The position numbers were made by a program, and so were the translations under genes. Below the pieces are notes generated by a model. It was not told the DNA's origin and searched no databases. It was given only the letters and a program-made list of their open reading frames with translations. From assembly GCA_016206085.1 (NCBI GenBank), contig JACQSF010000002.1, positions 1 to 54,262 of the forward strand: a stretch of 54,262 bases of DNA, in the 5' to 3' direction. Below, in pieces: positions 145-46,640 of this stretch; positions within the stretch are counted from its first letter, which is position 1; each line of letters opens with the position of its first letter. This stretch comes from Candidatus Uhrbacteria bacterium. GTDB lineage: Bacteria > Patescibacteriota > Patescibacteriia > UBA9934 > GWF2-40-263.

Positions 145-176
145 AAAAAAGACCGTCTGATGAGACCGTCTTTTTT
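145..176. terminator. Intrinsic terminator downstream of tRNA-Met
   Basis: AAAAAAGAC-c-GTCT-gatg-AGAC-c-GTCTTTTTT, a hairpin with A/T tracts on both sides, immediately 3' of the tRNA. Confidence 0.65.
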
Positions 177-252
177 GGTAGCTGGGGTGGGAGTTGAACC
201 CACGACCTCGGGCTTATGAGTCCCACGCTCTAACCAACTGAGCTACCCAGCC
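176..252 (-). tRNA. tRNA with CAT anticodon (elongator Met or Ile2)
   Basis: Minus strand GGCTGGGTAGCTCAGTTGGTTAGAGC...CT-CAT-AA...GGTTCAACTCC...CCCAGCTACCA; 77 nt with encoded CCA. Position 1:72 is G:U, so it is not initiator-like. Confidence 0.95.
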
Positions 253-266
253 ATGTGAAATTTGTA

Positions 267-371
267 AAATTGGCGAGCTGCTTGCTCTTCAGTCGGAAAC
301 TCGCTCGTCGTAGGATTTACCTACGTCTTGCGAGATTTCCGACCTCCAGAGCGGCGCATCTCATCCAATTT
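267..371. repeat. ~105-bp rod-like hairpin element, copy A (tRNA-Leu/tRNA-Met spacer)
   Basis: The first 24 nt (AAATTGGCGAGCTGCTTGCTCTTC) and last 28 nt (CTCCAGAGCGGCGCATCTCATCCAATTT) are identical to 46481-46583. The central 53 nt form a different hairpin. Confidence 0.9.
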
Positions 372-385
372 AACAAATTTCATTG

Positions 386-472
386 TGGTGCCGCGGGAGG
401 GAATCGAACCCTCACATGGTTGCCCATACAGGATTTTGAGTCCTGCGCGTCTACCAATTCCGCCACCGCGGC
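386..472 (-). tRNA. tRNA-Leu(CAA)
   Basis: Minus strand GCCGCGGTGGCGGAATTGGTAGACGCG-CAGGA-CT-CAA-AA-TCCTG, long variable arm, GGTTCGATTCC, CCGCGGCACCA. Confidence 0.96.
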
Positions 473-500: not shown

Positions 501-529
501 ACAATATCAAAAACATCCTGGGCTGTCCA
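501..529 (-). promoter_or_regulatory. Putative sigma70 promoter of the tRNA-Leu/tRNA-Met unit
   Basis: Minus strand TGGACA-17 nt-TATTGT with a TGn extension. Confidence 0.5.
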
Positions 530-4807: not shown

Positions 4808-5587
4808 ATGGCAATAAAACCACGACGTCTCCCAGAGGGAGGATCAGATCGATCACCAGAGGAAGTCATTCCTTCTCGACGCGCAGAAGCAGAGGCTTCA
4901 CCTGGAGCAGCTCCATCATCTGAAACAAGAAGCTCGTCAGATGCTGTTGACCCTGTGGCGATTGAAGCGGCACGAGCCCGAGCAATGGCATCAGGATCAT
5001 CGCGCACAGAAGAACCAAAAGAAGACAAAAAAACATGGTTTGATTTTTCAAAGGATGTGGGGTCGCGAGCCGAAAAAGTCGGGAAGGGAGGACTTCAAGT
5101 GTTGGGAGGGTCTCTGGTGGTAGCCGGGTATCTTGGCTATCAGACCAGTCGTCCAGTGCTGTTTACAACCGCCCGCGCCCTGGATTGGATTGGACACAAG
5201 ATGAACAGCTTGGCAGACAGGCTCATCGACAAAAAATTTCCTCTATTGAGTTGGATCGTCAACCCGGCAGTCTCATTACTTGATTCGTTTGCCAAGTCGC
5301 TTGGGATCGATAAGGCCCTTGCTGAACATTTGAGAAAGAATAGGGAGGATCGCAGGAAGCTCGCGGAAAAGGTTCTGAAAGAATATCGAGCTTCTGAAAC
5401 AACGTGCGAGAAAAAAATCGACGATGCTGCCTCGAGAGCCAGACGTCGCAGAGTTATTGAGGAGAAACTTGGAAAAGATGTAGCGGATGCACTTGGTGAT
5501 GATGTCGATGCCGCAGCCACAGCTGCAGCCGCCGGTTCAAAAGCGACAGAAGCACCAAAACCTGTGGAAGCAGTGAAGACAACATAA
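4808..5587 (+). CDS. Hypothetical protein (disordered N-terminus, amphipathic middle, coiled-coil C-terminus)
   Basis: Long ORF between a promoter and a terminator. Start moved to the ATG at 4808, downstream of the predicted promoter. Confidence 0.75.
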   Translation: MAIKPRRLPEGGSDRSPEEVIPSRRAEAEASPGAAPSSETRSSSDAVDPVAIEAARARAMASGSSRTEEPKEDKKTWFDFSKDVGSRAEKVGKGGLQVLGGSLVVAGYLGYQTSRPVLFTTARALDWIGHKMNSLADRLIDKKFPLLSWIVNPAVSLLDSFAKSLGIDKALAEHLRKNREDRRKLAEKVLKEYRASETTCEKKIDDAASRARRRRVIEEKLGKDVADALGDDVDAAATAAAAGSKATEAPKPVEAVKTT

Positions 5588-5608
5588 AACGGGTAATGCC
5601 CGTTTTAT
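5584..5608. terminator. Bidirectional intrinsic terminator
   Basis: ATAAAACGGG-taatg-CCCGTTTTAT between convergent genes. Confidence 0.7.
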
Positions 5609-7890
5609 TTTTTGTGTGGTTTGAATTTTCCTTTCTTGGCCTCGAGTGCGCGTTTCTTTTCCAGGATCTCGATCGCGGACTCACGGGTGACTTCTGCCGG
5701 GTTACGTTTTTTGCCAAGTGACGCGTTCGTCGTTCCGTCGGTGAGGTAAGGACCGAAACGTCCGTGCTTGAGAATAATCTCACCACCGCTTGTTGGATCG
5801 GTTCCAAACTCGGCAATGGGTGTGAGCATCTTTTTCTTGAGCTCGGCAGATTCTTTCAGGATGATGCGCGCCGTTGCTTCGTCGATCGAGAGGGGATCAA
5901 GGGGTTCCTTGATGCTCGCGCTCACTTCGCCGGCTTTGAGGTAGGGACCGAAACGTCCCACAGCCGCGACAATTTTTTCACCACCTTCTGTCACGCCCAC
6001 ATCGCGCGGAAGAGAGAGACACGCAAGCGCTTGCTCAAACGTCACAGATTCAACGTTCATGCCCTTGAGGAGTGACGCGCTTTTTGGTTTAGGCTTTCCT
6101 TCTTTCTTGTCTTCCTTGCTGTATTCACCGATCTGCACAAAGCCCCCGAAGCGGCCGGTCTTCAGAATGACAGGGAGACCTGAGTCTGGATCTGTTCCCA
6201 GCACGCGGTCTGGCATGATGTCTGCGCGGTCAAGTTCCTTTGTTTTTGTTTCAAGGTTCTTGTGAAACGGTTCGTAGAACGCTTCGAGCGTGGGCACCCA
6301 TTCAACTTTTCCTTCCGCGATTTCGTCCAGTGTGTTTTCCATCGTCGCGGTGAACTCGTAATCGACGATCTGTGGGAAGTGGCCTACCAGCACATCGTTC
6401 ACGATCAAGGCGATGTCGGTGGGAGCAAGTTTCTTGTTGTCATCACGTTCCACGTAGCCGCGATCGATGATGGTTGAGATGGTTGGCGCGTACGTGGAAG
6501 GTCGGCCAATCCCGAATTCTTCGAGTGTCTTCACGAGGGTCGCGTCTGAATAGCGGGCTGGAGGTTCAGTAAAGTGCTGTGAGGGAAGGATCGATTTTGT
6601 GACGACCGCATCGCCCTGAGCGAGATCAGGGAGGATTTTTTCTTTTGCCGACTGGTAGACCTTCATGAAACCCTGGAAGGCGACGGAGGAGCCAGAGGCG
6701 CGGAAGAGGCAGTGCTTCGCCTGGATGTCGACGGTCGTTCGGTTGAGTTGCGCAGACGGGAGCTGTGAAGCAACCGTGCGGCTCCAGATAAGGCTATAGA
6801 GTTTCCACGCGCGTGGCTCAAGCGCGGAGCGGAGCGACTCAGGAGTTGCGGTGACTTCTGTTGGACGGATGGCTTCATGCGCTTCTTGGGCGCCTTTTTT
6901 GTTGGTTTTAAAACGTCGTGCACCTTCCGCATACTTCTCACCAAACGTCGTGCGGATATAGGTCTGGGCTTCATCGAGGAATTTTTCGGCCAAGTTCATC
7001 GAGTCCGTACGCATGTAGGTGATACGACCGGTCTCGTAGAGTTCTTGAGCTAGACGCATGGTCTGCTTGGAGCTAAATCCGAGTTTCGTGTTCGCATCGA
7101 TCTGCAACGTTGAAGTCGTGAGCGGCGTGGGAGCGGCTTTCTTTATGAGCTTCTTCTCGACCGCGGTGACACTCGCCGCAGCTCCAGAAAGACTCTCGAC
7201 GATTGTCTTCGTACGTTGTTCTGTTTTGAGATCGAGTTTGTCGATTTTTTTCCCGTCGACTTCCATCAGCTTTGCCGGAAAACTGATTTCTGACTTCTCG
7301 AATTCCGCGTCGATGGTCCAGTACTCTTCAATGTTGAAGGCTCGGCGTTCGCGTTCGCGTTCGACAATAAGACGCATCGCGACAGATTGCACGCGACCAG
7401 CGGAGAGACCGTAACGGATTTTCTGCCAGAGGAATGGTGAGAGTTCGTAGCCGACAAGACGATCCAGGATACGGCGCGTCTGCTGGGCGTTCACGAGGTT
7501 TTGGTCGATGGCTCGTGGATGGGCAACGGCTTCCTCCACGGCAGCGCGGGTTATTTCGTGAAACGTGATGCGGCGAGTGTTCTCGGGTTTGAGTTTGAGC
7601 GCCTCCATGATGTGCCAGGCGATAGCCTCTCCTTCGCGGTCTTCGTCCGTCGCCAGGTAGACCATGTCGGCATGTTTGACCGCGGCTTTGAGCTCGGTCA
7701 CGGCTTTCTTGCTTTTGGGTGGAATCGTGTACGTTGGCTCAAAATGATTCTCGAGGTCTACACCGAGTTTGCTTTTTGGAAGGTCACGGATGTGACCAAA
7801 AGAGGAAAGGACTTTGTAGTCCGAACCTAAGTATTTTGAAATGGTTTTTGCTTTCGTCGGGGACTCGACGATGAGTAGATGGTGCGACAT
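5605..7890 (-). CDS. topA: DNA topoisomerase I (type IA)
   Basis: LIVESPTKAK, ATDEDREGEAI, SAGRVQS, catalytic ITYMRTDS. C-terminal GRFG/GPY repeats in place of zinc ribbons. Confidence 0.97.
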   Translation of the reverse strand: MSHHLLIVESPTKAKTISKYLGSDYKVLSSFGHIRDLPKSKLGVDLENHFEPTYTIPPKSKKAVTELKAAVKHADMVYLATDEDREGEAIAWHIMEALKLKPENTRRITFHEITRAAVEEAVAHPRAIDQNLVNAQQTRRILDRLVGYELSPFLWQKIRYGLSAGRVQSVAMRLIVERERERRAFNIEEYWTIDAEFEKSEISFPAKLMEVDGKKIDKLDLKTEQRTKTIVESLSGAAASVTAVEKKLIKKAAPTPLTTSTLQIDANTKLGFSSKQTMRLAQELYETGRITYMRTDSMNLAEKFLDEAQTYIRTTFGEKYAEGARRFKTNKKGAQEAHEAIRPTEVTATPESLRSALEPRAWKLYSLIWSRTVASQLPSAQLNRTTVDIQAKHCLFRASGSSVAFQGFMKVYQSAKEKILPDLAQGDAVVTKSILPSQHFTEPPARYSDATLVKTLEEFGIGRPSTYAPTISTIIDRGYVERDDNKKLAPTDIALIVNDVLVGHFPQIVDYEFTATMENTLDEIAEGKVEWVPTLEAFYEPFHKNLETKTKELDRADIMPDRVLGTDPDSGLPVILKTGRFGGFVQIGEYSKEDKKEGKPKPKSASLLKGMNVESVTFEQALACLSLPRDVGVTEGGEKIVAAVGRFGPYLKAGEVSASIKEPLDPLSIDEATARIILKESAELKKKMLTPIAEFGTDPTSGGEIILKHGRFGPYLTDGTTNASLGKKRNPAEVTRESAIEILEKKRALEAKKGKFKPHKK

Positions 7891-13877: not shown

Positions 13878-13901
13878 TCCCCCCGCTCGCGAGCGGGGGG
13901 A
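13878..13901. mobile_element. 24-bp perfect palindrome TCCCCCC-GCTCGCGAGC-GGGGGGA
   Basis: Flanked by a TAGA direct repeat (13874-13877 and 13902-13905) that occurs once at this site in the intact tRNA. Confidence 0.85.
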
Positions 13902-13931
13902 TAGAGCGCTGTCCTCACACGACAGAGGTCA

Positions 13932-13955
13932 TCCCCCCTTTCGCGAAAGGGGGGA
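13932..13955. mobile_element. 24-bp perfect palindrome TCCCCCC-TTTCGCGAAA-GGGGGGA
   Basis: Flanked by a TCA direct repeat (13929-13931 and 13956-13958) that occurs once at this site in the intact tRNA. Confidence 0.85.
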
Positions 13956-14071
13956 TCAGAGGTTCGAGCCCTCTCACGCCCACCAAACCAGACGCTTCCG
14001 GGCGCCTGTTTTGTTTGTCACCGCCGTCCCTTGCCCCATGTCCATTTTCTTGATACGCTTGGAACATCTTT

Positions 14072-14677
14072 ATGTCATTACGATTTTCCCAGTTTGAAGA
14101 GAGATTGTATGACCGGTTTGGACCGGTGGGTGGCGCGGTTGCTTCCTTTTTGCTTGAGATCATCCAGATCATCCTTATCTCAAGTGCGATCATCATTCCG
14201 ATTCGTTACTTCTTGATTCAGCCGTTTTATGTAAAAGGGGCGAGCATGGAACCCAACTTTTACGACCAGGAGTACCTTATTATCGATGAATTGACCTACC
14301 GGTTTCGTGAACCGTATCGAGGAGAGATTGTTGTATTCAAGTATCCTCGCGATCCCAGTCAGTACTTCATCAAGCGTGTGATCGGGTTGCCAGGGGAGAC
14401 GGTCGAAGTCACGGGGGGAAATGTCATCATCTATAACACCGAGCATCCAAATGGGGTCGTGGTTGAAGAAGATTACTTAGACGAATCCACGACCGGCAAA
14501 GTCCGTGTGACACTCGGAGAAGATGAGTACTATGTCTTCGGAGATAATCGTGATTCATCACTGGACTCCCGGAGCTTCGGTTCTATTACTCGTGATGATG
14601 TGATCGGACGTGTGTGGGTCCGCGGTCTCCCCCTCTCTCGTATTACAACGTTTGACCTTCCCACTTACAATCTCTAA
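14072..14677 (+). CDS. lepB: Signal peptidase I
   Basis: TM helix, VKGASMEPN (Ser), RGEIVVF, FIKRVIGLPGE (Lys), GDNRDSSLDSR. Confidence 0.95.
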   Translation: MSLRFSQFEERLYDRFGPVGGAVASFLLEIIQIILISSAIIIPIRYFLIQPFYVKGASMEPNFYDQEYLIIDELTYRFREPYRGEIVVFKYPRDPSQYFIKRVIGLPGETVEVTGGNVIIYNTEHPNGVVVEEDYLDESTTGKVRVTLGEDEYYVFGDNRDSSLDSRSFGSITRDDVIGRVWVRGLPLSRITTFDLPTYNL

Positions 14678-14685
14678 TTGATCCT

Positions 14686-16107
14686 ATGCCATTCAAGAGA
14701 AAAGCTCTAGCCAAAGAACCGGCTCCAAAAAAGGTTTTGAAAGAGGAGCCTAAAAAAGATCTCGATGAGGAGGGTGAGGGAAAATCCGGGAAGACATTTG
14801 AACTGCTTCGTGGATTTCGAGACATCTTGCCGGAGGATCAGGGCAGATGGAACCTTGTGCGTGATACGATTCGTTCAATTGCCGAATCCTACAGCTTCGA
14901 TCGTATCGATCTGCCGATTTTGGAGCGTTCGGATTTGTTTCAGCGAACCATCGGCAAAGGAACCGACATCGTCGAAAAAGAGATGTACGTCTTTACGGAT
15001 CCATCCAATCGTTCTGTGGCGTTGCGTCCGGAGGCGACCGCCAGCGCGGCTCGTGCCTATATCAGCCACGGCATGATTGAGCGGCCACAGCCGGTGAAGA
15101 TGTGGTATTTAGGTCCCATGTTTCGTCACGACCGTCCGCAGGCCGGCCGTTATCGCCAGTTTTATCAGGCGGGATTTGAGAGTTTTGGTGTGGCCGAACC
15201 GATTGTGGATGCCCAACTCATCGTGATTGGTCATCAGATTTTTAAGTCGCTTGGTTTGGACGTAAAAGTTGAGATTAACTCGATTGGCACCTCCGAGTGT
15301 CGCGCCGCGTATCTTACTGAACTTGTCGCGTACTTCCGCCAGCATCGCAATAAACTTTCCGAGGATGACAAGCGGAGACTGCAGAAAAATCCCTTGCGCA
15401 TGTTGGACAGCAAGGAAGAGGTAACCCGTGAGCTACTGCAAAGTGCTCCTCAAATTCTTGATTGGTTGGATGAGACGAGCAAGGAGCACTTCATGAAGGT
15501 GCTTGAGTTTTTGGAAGAGGTGGAGGTGTCCTACCAACTCAATCCCTACTTGGTTCGCGGGCTTGACTACTACTCACACACCGTTTTTGAGTTTACGCTT
15601 CAAGAAGACGTCGGCGACTTGTCGCAAAGTGCGTTGGGTGGCGGCGGACGATATGACGGGCTTGTGGAGATTCTTGGTGGTCGGCCGACACCGGCGTGCG
15701 GATTTGCCCTGGGAATTGAACGCATCGTTCGTGCGTTGGAAGCAAAAGGCGTCAATCCACCCGAGCGTCCACCCGCCCTGGTATTTTTTGCTCAGTTGGG
15801 TGATGCGGCTCGTCGTGTGGGACTGAAGTTGTTTGAGGAGTTTCGACAAGCGGGTGTTTCCGTTGCAGAAGCGTTTGGGAAGAATGCCCTCAAAGGCCAA
15901 CTGGAGGCCGCCAATAGGATGGGGGTAAGACTCACGCTCATTTTAGGTCAAAAGGAAGTGCTCGATGGGACGATTATTATTCGTGACATGGAGTCAGGGG
16001 CGCAGGAGATTGTCGACGTAAAAAAGGTTGTGGGACTTGTGAAAAAGAAGCTCCTCCATGAGGAGGGGGTGGCTCTCCAGAGTCAGACGCCGGTTGTGGA
16101 AGCTTAA
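14686..16107 (+). CDS. hisS: Histidyl-tRNA synthetase
   Basis: RGFRD, LRPEATA, FRHDRPQAGRYRQFYQ, LVRGLDYY, GGGGRYDGL, GFALGIER. Confidence 0.97.
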   Translation: MPFKRKALAKEPAPKKVLKEEPKKDLDEEGEGKSGKTFELLRGFRDILPEDQGRWNLVRDTIRSIAESYSFDRIDLPILERSDLFQRTIGKGTDIVEKEMYVFTDPSNRSVALRPEATASAARAYISHGMIERPQPVKMWYLGPMFRHDRPQAGRYRQFYQAGFESFGVAEPIVDAQLIVIGHQIFKSLGLDVKVEINSIGTSECRAAYLTELVAYFRQHRNKLSEDDKRRLQKNPLRMLDSKEEVTRELLQSAPQILDWLDETSKEHFMKVLEFLEEVEVSYQLNPYLVRGLDYYSHTVFEFTLQEDVGDLSQSALGGGGRYDGLVEILGGRPTPACGFALGIERIVRALEAKGVNPPERPPALVFFAQLGDAARRVGLKLFEEFRQAGVSVAEAFGKNALKGQLEAANRMGVRLTLILGQKEVLDGTIIIRDMESGAQEIVDVKKVVGLVKKKLLHEEGVALQSQTPVVEA

Positions 16108-45684: not shown

Positions 45685-45933
45685 CTACTTCTGGATCAGG
45701 TGTTTTCTCATGAAGGCAATTCCAGAAGCTGTTTTTAGATATTTTTCAAATTGTGCTGCTTGCTGTTGTGATATGAAAGCAGAGTACCAGATGACTGACC
45801 AGAGTTTGAACTTTGAAGTATGTGGTACTTGTCCAGCGTTATGTTGTTCAAGTCGGTTCCGGAGGTTTGATGTCGAACCTTTATAGATTTGATTTGGGAG
45901 GTTCTTGCTTCTCAGGATGTAGACGTAGTGCAT
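45685..45933 (-). CDS. Stand-alone GIY-YIG nuclease (82 aa)
   Basis: MHYVYILRS...IYKGSTSNLRNRLEQHNAG..PHTSK...WSVIWY.AF...AAQFEKYLKTASG. Confidence 0.9.
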   Translation of the reverse strand: MHYVYILRSKNLPNQIYKGSTSNLRNRLEQHNAGQVPHTSKFKLWSVIWYSAFISQQQAAQFEKYLKTASGIAFMRKHLIQK

Positions 45934-45973
45934 ATCGAGTTGGCCTGTCTCTATATGAAGACGAGCATGGCCT

Positions 45974-46080
45974 GCCATCCGTAGCTCCAGCACAGGACAT
46001 AGTTATACGCCCTTCTTCGCTAAAGCTACGGAGGGCATCCTTCGCCCCAGCAACAAAAAATACTGCTGGAGCGAAGGATG
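45974..46080. repeat. Cluster of CCGTAGCT/CCTTCGC palindromic repeats between the tmRNA 3' end and GIY-YIG
   Basis: GCCATCCGTAGCT...AGCTACGGAGGGC and CATCCTTCGC...GCGAAGGATG hairpins; the latter overlaps the tmRNA CCA. Confidence 0.75.
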
Positions 46081-46471
46081 GTGGAGCTGGGGAGAATCGA
46101 ACTCCCGTGCGGTAAGGTTTCTCATCTTGATGTTTCCAAGCTCATTCACGCCTCATACCTCGTCACGCTCAAGGCGTGAAGCAATACATGACGAGGAACC
46201 GATCGCAACTCTTACATGTGAGAGATCGGTGACCTCACACGCGAAGCTCGATAATATAACACCCGACTGCTGGCTATCGAGCATGACCAGCGCGGATGGT
46301 TCTGACGCTTACGCGAGAACAGGGGCGAATGAAGGAACGCGCAAAGCGTTCTTGATCATTGCCATGACGTTGTTTGCAGTTGTCGTCTTGCATGGGGAAT
46401 ATTTGCGTGCGACCCATGCTCGCACGACTTGATCAAGATGGAAGAGACTCCCGTCGAAGCCTGTCAGCCCC
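46079..46471 (-). ncRNA. ssrA: tmRNA (one-piece)
   Basis: 5' GGGGCTGACAGGCTTCGAC, 3' GGGAGTTCGATTCTCCCCAGCTCCACCA (G:U Ala identity); tag ORF ANNVMAMIKNALRVPSFAPVLA*; smpB about 2 kb away. Confidence 0.95.
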
Positions 46472-46480
46472 GATCTGTCG

Positions 46481-46583
46481 AAATTGGCGAGCTGCTTGCT
46501 CTTCGCCATGAAAACACCTCACCGACCGTTTTAGGTCGCCTCGGTGTTTTCATGTCTCCAGAGCGGCGCATCTCATCCAATTT
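46481..46583. repeat. ~103-bp rod-like hairpin element, copy B (tmRNA 5' leader)
   Basis: Same 24-nt and 28-nt feet as 267-371; central 51-nt hairpin CATGAAAACACC...GGTGTTTTCATG. Confidence 0.9.
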
Positions 46584-46611
46584 CACCAGATCGTGACTCT
46601 TCCATCGCCAA

Positions 46612-46640
46612 AGACTAGTCAAAAAAAGAGGTTTTGTCAA
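46612..46640 (-). promoter_or_regulatory. Putative ssrA promoter
   Basis: TTGACA-17 nt-TAGTCT. Confidence 0.65.

Follow-up and report, generated by a model that had tools for sequence, protein, structure and literature searches.

Correia elements of Neisseria, ERIC/IRU sequences of enterobacteria and RPE of Rickettsia are hairpin-forming, MITE-like imperfect palindromes of about 100-150 bp found in compact genomes. They are frequently transcribed along with neighbouring genes, form RNA hairpins and sometimes lie in or beside RNA genes, and we know of no report of a fixed polarity toward tRNA gene ends for any of them. Position- and orientation-specific integration on both sides of tRNA genes is known from the Dictyostelium TRE5/TRE3 elements and from yeast Ty3. 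The autonomous IS3-family elements IS1397 and ISKpn1 use a sequence-defined REP target, in the loops of palindromic units.

We analyzed a 54,262-nucleotide stretch of DNA from a Candidatus Uhrbacteria bacterium (the window), which carries two copies, A and B, of a hairpin element that we call the rod. Both are, probably, resident copies of a non-autonomous hairpin MITE family present in Candidatus Uhrbacteria and in neighbouring Patescibacteria lineages. Members of the family are small, non-coding and dispersed, they have terminal inverted repeats and target duplications, and they are present or absent at orthologous sites. An autonomous insertion sequence with the same repeats was seen for one subfamily (type 2), and none was found for the type-1 termini of the window copies, whose own mobility is deduced from family membership only. 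Throughout, G000 designates the source genome (877-kb assembly) and G001 onward are labels for related genomes, G002 being the closest relative.

Two rods next to tRNA and tmRNA genes

The model strand of the element is the minus strand of the window. Rod A is a complete hairpin of 127 nt (256..382, minus strand; covariance-model match at 255-383, 128.3 bits) located between tRNA-Leu (CAA; 386..472, minus strand), the CCA end of which is 3 nt ahead of the rod 5' end, and tRNA-Met (CAT; 176..252, minus strand), the 5' end of which comes 3 nt after the rod 3' end, both tRNAs being detected by ARAGORN and Rfam. Rod B is a complete hairpin of 121 nt (46472..46592, minus strand; covariance-model match at 46469-46595, 123.2 bits), and its last base touches the first base, a G, of the tmRNA (46079..46471, minus strand; Rfam RF00023 at 116 bits, also called by ARAGORN). 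All of these neighbours lie on the minus strand, and read on that strand each copy stands ahead of an RNase P substrate; the contact of rod A with the tRNA-Leu 3' end comes in addition to what the preliminary description had reported. RNase P RNA is present and normal in G000. Directly downstream of the tmRNA 3' end lies an ORF with a GIY-YIG nuclease domain (45685-45993, minus strand; 102-aa frame; PF01541, E-value 1.5e-15). ARAGORN also called a permuted "tmRNA*" at 13890-14694 (plus strand), beside a tRNA-Val, which Rfam does not confirm; given the real tmRNA at 46079-46471, this call is probably false and falls on a repeat-rich stretch.

The two copies share a 24-nt foot, AAATTGGCGAGCTGCTTGCTCTTC, at 267-290 and 46481-46504, and a 28-nt foot, CTCCAGAGCGGCGCATCTCATCCAATTT, at 344-371 and 46556-46583. 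A search of the window tolerating up to 3 mismatches located each foot exactly twice, against 0 times in 100 shuffles, and reproduced in full the identity of the feet first noted for this DNA. On the model strand, the 5' foot reads AAAUUGGAUGAGAUGCGCCGCUCUGGAG (344..371 in copy A and 46556..46583 in copy B, minus strand), includes the GAUGAGAU box and is the most conserved block of the family alignment, and the 3' foot reads GAAGAGCAAGCAGCUCGCCAAUUU (267..290 in copy A and 46481..46504 in copy B, minus strand) and includes an AG(A/C)UCGC box. The feet end 14 and 9 nt ahead of the mature 5' ends of tRNA-Met and tmRNA, as had been described. The extent of the element had been put at about 105 bp, which is correct for the feet and what they enclose, but their flanks pair as well, giving rods of 121-127 nt (256-382 and 46472-46592); because the helix extends beyond the feet, only 3 and 0 nt remain between the rods and tRNA-Met and tmRNA, respectively. 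Rod A folds at -68 to -71 kcal/mol (z about -11), and the values for the two window rods lie between about -62 and -75 kcal/mol (z -9.3 to -11.3).

The 53- and 51-nt centres had been taken for unrelated hairpins. They do differ and each does fold as a hairpin, but they have in common a family-wide GAR...CG-stem-loop-CG.UGAR motif, which forms a semi-conserved internal loop (GAR..CG-stem-loop-CG.UGAR) in the variable upper hairpin (291..343 in copy A, minus strand). An exchange of apical hairpins between copies, also proposed, is not what we see: the tops differ by divergence with compensatory changes and retain the shared motif. The feet of copies A and B correspond to the family consensus save for one recurrent A-to-C variant common to both, so their 100% identity requires no exchange of tops. 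Both window copies are of type 1; copy A has the termini ATGAAATTTGTTAAATTG and the termini of copy B are unique. No conserved terminal sequence was seen in the two copies, reading the flanks of both revealed no recognisable target duplication, and the element contains no ORF.

Upstream of rod B we read a putative tmRNA promoter, TTGACA-N17-TAGTCT (46612..46640, minus strand), which a simple promoter consensus scan did not call. The same box is found upstream of the tmRNA in G002, G005 and G007, whether a rod is present or not, and rod B should therefore belong to the pre-tmRNA leader, of which it would make up most of a roughly 140-nt length. A promoter-like site, TGGACA-17-TATTGT (501..529, minus strand), precedes tRNA-Leu as a consensus match only; if it is real, tRNA-Leu, rod A and tRNA-Met would form one transcript, rod A being co-transcribed between the two tRNAs. 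RNase P would then cut both rods off as by-products, the rods not being needed for processing, and the pre-tRNA and pre-tmRNA would bear large hairpins for RNase P to clear. Promoter scans revealed no promoter inside the rod.

Family distribution and structure

Sequences matching the feet with few mismatches were found in two further contigs of the same assembly, with compensatory differences between them (AAATTGG/CCAATTT, AAACTGG/CCAGTTT and CATTTGG/CCAAATG; GCTCT/AGAGC and GTGCT/AGCAC). From these copies and the two of the window, four in all and each of type 1, we built a covariance model, R1 (127 positions, 43 pairs). In G000, R1 yielded 14 good matches which, with one copy behind a 5S rRNA and a few more retrieved by BLAST, bring the genome to about 15-18 rod copies. 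The model detected the family in 36 of 60 related genomes, with 1-26 copies each and a patchy distribution: all eight genomes of the source genus carry rods and many genera of the same family have none. When 401 genomes were sampled evenly across the phylum, only 7 had rods. Elements are 117-131 nt long, apart from a long variant of 184 nt. R1 finds type-2 copies at E-values of 1e-6 to 1e-11, and since it was built from type 1 only, types 1 and 2 are one family.

Over 48 aligned matches, 91.4% of cells were paired versus 65% after shuffling, 41 of the 43 pairs showed changes on both sides, and the covariation score was 0.68, compared with 0.19 after shuffling and no more than 0.14 with slid partners. 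Helix 1, the outer stem, was paired in 96.9% of cases, and its repeat sequence varies between subfamilies. The internal loops are conserved and read, on the window minus strand, GGAUGAGAUGC-GCC/GAA-GNNCUGGAG ... GAR..CG-stem-loop-CG.UGAR ... C-GA-AGNNC-AA/GA-GCAGAUCGCC. The inner loops are nearly invariant and each of the four Watson-Crick pair types occurs at almost all positions of the termini, so that conservation is the reverse of that of an ordinary MITE, with a fixed interior and free ends. What is conserved is an inner module of asymmetric build, GAUGAGAU / AGAUCGC. For an element of about 127 nt we propose an anatomy in which a terminal inverted repeat of about 18 nt on each side would form the outer stem, followed by the asymmetric conserved inner module (5' GAUGAGAU... 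/ ...AGAUCGC 3') with a GA-rich internal loop and then by the variable upper hairpin.

Searching the window and the rod loci against Rfam 15 gave no rod match at the gathering threshold, and only chance-level matches at E-values up to 10, in agreement with the earlier impression that the element belongs to no named family. We found no description of MITEs in bacteria of the candidate phyla radiation (CPR) in the literature searched. A phage origin was rejected, there being no match among INPHARED phages, and 21 IMG/VR contigs sharing a 17-mer are chance matches because the covariance model finds no rod in them. Integron attC sites (RYYYAAC / GTTRRRY) were also rejected, as rod ends are variable and lack AAC/GTT cores, and so were integron cassette arrays, as the rod clusters are tRNA arrays. 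A short motif scan for solo feet was too unspecific for use.

Rods often lie 40-400 nt from contig ends (G035:C31:72-200, G006:C47:262-387, G033:C29:38-164 and, in G000, C2:263-386, C29:254-379 and C32:255-383), which suggests that they, or the adjacent tRNA and rRNA genes, break these assemblies. For annotation, the family implies that rods in CPR genomes should be masked as repeats, and not entered as sRNA genes, leaders or riboswitch-like elements.

Mobility, termini and polarity

One filled and empty pair involves a terminator. G001 has an intact bidirectional terminator without a rod, AAAACCGAGC-CGGA-GCTCGGTTTT, and at the orthologous site of G000 (C27:28571-28699) a 129-nt rod occupies the loop, flanked by TGCT on both sides. 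Beside this C27 rod, a GC-rich gene of about 230 aa extends over two frames with an apparent frameshift (G000 C27 21082-21775; L001 about 5108-5801), and the terminator of this split gene is located at L001 5066-5090. At the tmRNA 5' end, which we compared across eight genomes, type-1 rods are present in G000 and G003 and a type-2-like rod in G007, and G005 is empty, with a 9-nt leader; the rod is also absent from the relatives G011 and G012. G002 (L143, G002:C12) has, upstream of its tmRNA, a stub consisting of the outer stem around a 10-nt loop, GCTTTGGAAAAATGG-TCCAGCCCGG-CATTTTTACAGAGC, which looks like an internal deletion of the conserved module. In G038, an order-level relative, tRNA-Leu and tRNA-Met are separated by a 4-nt spacer (tRNA-Leu-AAAT-tRNA-Met) and no rod. 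Next to tRNA-Lys, which is followed by the same PaaX-like gene in both genomes, the rod is on the 3' side in G000 and on the 5' side in G001. The rod A locus is filled in G002 also, by a counterpart with 84% identity, the fold kept and four both-sided compensatory changes.

We counted flanking direct repeats with element ends set 17-19 nt outside the two boxes. Repeats of at least 4 nt flank 13 of 58 distinct copies, versus 2.3 expected (maximum of 7 in 200 shuffles); examples are CTTA (twice), GTGA, TGAT, TGCT, TGGT, CACAA, ATAAA, TAAAT and ATTAA, to which a separate inspection added AGATG, TAGG, TATG, TATT and TATCA. One copy duplicates GGTGC, the complement of the 3' terminal GCACC of a tRNA, which shows how an insertion can abut a gene flush without damage. 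Two G000 copies, on C12 and C33, are 100% identical, and in G028 three 184-nt copies are 100% identical and one 99.5%, indicating recent activity of the family. The preliminary description had offered, as one option, a mobile element aimed at tRNA 5' flanks; mobility is supported for the family, and its targets are wider, as both flanks of tRNAs are used and terminator loops and stop codons as well.

The same comparisons disfavour the other option, in which the rod would serve stable RNAs as a structured leader or in their processing. An element dedicated to processing would be expected to keep both its position and its sense, and rods keep neither: beyond the tmRNA sites that are rodless (G005, G011, G012) or reduced to a stub (G002) and the rodless tRNA pair of G038, about half of the copies are away from stable RNA genes, and those at tRNA and 23S 3' ends are antisense. 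We conclude that a leader role is unsupported.

Type-2 copies, of which there are many in the source genus, start with GAGACCTCTGCAAAACTC|GATGAGAT. Over 18 nt, their ends agree with the terminal inverted repeats of an IS5-family insertion sequence, and both have 4-5-bp duplications. Such insertion sequences, with the terminal repeats GAGACCTCTG(C/A)AAAA(CTC), are present in G015, G021 and one Saccharibacteria MAG; that of G015 is 1215 bp long with the duplication AATA, and that of G021 is 1314 bp long with the duplication TGAGA. They encode a transposase matching NF033581 at 265 bits and also DDE_Tnp_1, and in G015 this transposase lies at L135 1471-2475. The Saccharibacteria copy (contig CAYJMK010000154.1, 316-1520; L156) has GAGACCTCTGCAAAA as terminal repeats, and its transposase and the Uhrbacteria one share 70% identity; with the same ends in this MAG, the partner insertion sequence spans deep CPR lineages. 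In the contig search, the transposase had one close relative besides the query. The inner module was not found in the partner insertion sequences, and no insertion sequence with type-1 termini was found. Across the 60 genomes, DDE_Tnp_1 (present in 13) does not track rods and is absent from G000 and from the copy-rich G012, G033, G035 and G048; it was this search that led to the insertion sequence with matching ends. G000 has no multi-copy ORFs or IS-like paralogues. A recurrent neighbour gene was considered and rejected, as the only recurring one, a PaaX_M/Cas2-like ORF, is explained by synteny with tRNA-Lys. Judging from the shared ends and the shared duplication length, a DDE transposase of the IS5 kind may move type-2 copies in trans. 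The type-1 copies of the window, which have other termini and no recognisable duplication, would be older insertions, the stems of which have since drifted with compensatory changes.

The inner module is joined to at least four kinds of terminus (GAGACC..., GTAAAAC..., TAGGAC... and a TA-flanked TAGTCATCACA... long form). In the 184-nt long variant (L128-L130 and L027; G028), the rod lies inside a further conserved palindrome (CTATAGTCATCACA...) that is apparently TA-flanked, without 4-5-bp repeats. Another enzyme may move this variant, which could be a MITE of nested or chimeric make-up. One long-variant copy is also present in G000 (C9:38715-38881).

To describe placement, we used 67 rods from more than 30 genomes; the loci are non-random, some having been fetched via tRNA homology or rod clustering, which inflates the tRNA-adjacent share and leaves the polarity unaffected. 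A tRNA or tmRNA lies within 8 nt of the AGAUCGC-box end in 32 of the 67 rods. In 20 of these 32, rod and tRNA share a strand, with the rod ahead of the tRNA 5' end (sense), and in the other 12 they are on opposite strands, with the rod against the tRNA 3' end (antisense). The other rod end is within 8 nt of a tRNA in a single rod, copy A, which has a tRNA close by on either side. There are also several tRNAs with a rod on each flank, both rods pointing at the tRNA; the five tRNA-adjacent rods and the tmRNA copy among the type-2 copies of G007 obey the polarity, as do five tight stop-codon contacts. Flanking A+T over 10 nt is 69% at the other end versus 53% at the gene-facing end. Orientation relative to neighbour transcription is otherwise about even, and about half of the 67 rods adjoin protein genes, stop codons or terminators. 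The copy in the 23S-5S spacer is antisense to the rRNA, and a rod at the 23S 3' end is found in two genera, the second case being G011 (L023). On contig C29 of G000 (L002/L006), positions 1-740 comprise a 23S 3' end (1-249), an antisense rod (254-379), a 5S rRNA (443-551) and a type-2-like rod (610-740). Neither a promoter nor a polar terminator is supported as the source of the polarity. For the terminator, the 5' flank is rich in A+T (A 36%, T 33%) without being A-rich in particular, and the outer arms are alike in both orientations.

For the hairpin MITE that we propose, insertions would survive at, or be aimed at, exact gene boundaries, where the duplicated target bases would restore the gene end. 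Ultra-small Patescibacteria genomes, which have almost no spare DNA, could in this manner tolerate dozens of 127-nt insertions. The symmetric terminal repeats of a DDE element do not predict the observed 32-to-1 polarity. We put forward, tentatively and as the less likely case, that the operative part of the element is its inner module and not the terminal repeats. The module would be a structure-specific device teamed with several termini, which either steers oriented insertion to the margins of genic or folded DNA, such as tRNA ends, terminator loops and stop codons, or is retained by the host next to stable RNA genes, where it would work as a polar insulator or roadblock. If true, a bacterial DNA transposon would be selecting its target and orientation in a new way, and the tRNA-flank targeting of eukaryotic retroelements would have a bacterial counterpart; should the polarity rule prove mechanistic, bacterial transposition would have a so far unknown means of selecting target and orientation.

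Alternative readings and comparison with described systems

A role in RNA is the likeliest of the rival readings, and we consider it improbable. Copies beside stable RNA genes, whatever they came from, would have been exapted and would act in the transcript as a protective or insulating leader or trailer hairpin or as a binding site for a processing factor, with the inner loops as the recognition site. It agrees with the inner loops being far more conserved than the stems, with the 32 of 67 rods set 0-8 nt off mature ends, with the recurrence at the 23S 3' end in two genera and with the place of rod B within the inferred tmRNA transcription unit. Compensatory change also keeps the fold at the same locus across species, with the 4 both-sided changes between G000 and G002 and 13 for the 23S rods of G000 and G011, the orthology of the latter being uncertain; such changes at one locus indicate that something beyond transposase binding maintains the fold. 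However, close relatives have no rod, or a deleted one, at the same tmRNA and tRNA sites, and about half of the copies adjoin protein genes or occupy terminator loops. Transcripts, moreover, would hold the sense rod at 5' ends and the antisense rod at 3' ends, two roles that a single RNA motif cannot fill. Outside one invariant U-G pair, G-U and A-C pairs on the model strand number 72 and 45; this excess is weak and independent of context, so that one strand acting as RNA cannot be claimed.

It is very improbable that rods are an independent family of sRNA genes, in which a model-strand rod sRNA would receive its 3' end by an RNase P cut, either at the tRNA that follows or at a tRNA-like fold in antisense. 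The model-strand rod does always stand directly 5' of a cloverleaf-forming sequence (a sense or mirror tRNA), and the model strand out-folds its complement in every copy, but this advantage comes mainly from the conserved loops and the invariant U-G pair, not from the variable stems. No promoter was found ahead of the rods, their orientation to neighbour genes is random, half of the copies have no downstream tRNA, and target duplications and empty sites show insertion at the DNA level.

Least credible is a REPIN-type element moved on a folded single strand by a RAYT (Y1 HUH) transposase, for despite the hairpin-doublet shape of about 100-130 nt and the presence of Y1_Tnp genes in G000, Y1_Tnp occurs in 26 of 36 rod-positive versus 14 of 24 rod-negative genomes and is absent from the copy-rich G030, G033, G035 and G048, and 4-5-bp duplications with termini common to an IS5-family DDE element do not fit HUH transposition.

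As a hairpin MITE family, rods resemble the IS5-derived bacterial MITEs in being ORF-less, about 130 bp long and dispersed, with terminal inverted repeats, 4-5-bp duplications and filled and empty sites, and type-2 rods have exactly the termini that an autonomous IS5-family element carries as its terminal repeats (GAGACCTCTGCAAAA). They differ in that the interior is a conserved structured module absent from the insertion sequence and not a deleted insertion sequence, and in that one module is combined with several terminal sequences, type 1 having no known cognate insertion sequence. Correia, ERIC and RPE elements keep their termini and vary inside, whereas rods covary at the termini around fixed asymmetric inner loops. 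With REPIN-RAYT systems rods share the hairpin doublet, conserved "feet", a spacer paired by compensatory change and tens of copies per genome, but not the co-distribution with a Y1 transposase; they also have target duplications, and their feet are not inverted copies of one REP. The rod in the terminator loop recalls IS1397 and ISKpn1, which likewise insert in a DNA hairpin loop with a short duplication, but the sites that rods use are tRNA ends, terminators and stop codons. For the polarity rule, the nearest parallel is provided by TRE5/TRE3 and Ty3. Those retroelements are guided by RNA polymerase III factors, and to our knowledge bacteria have no RNA polymerase III transcription factors; the rod, in contrast, is a DNA element placed 0-8 nt off the gene end.
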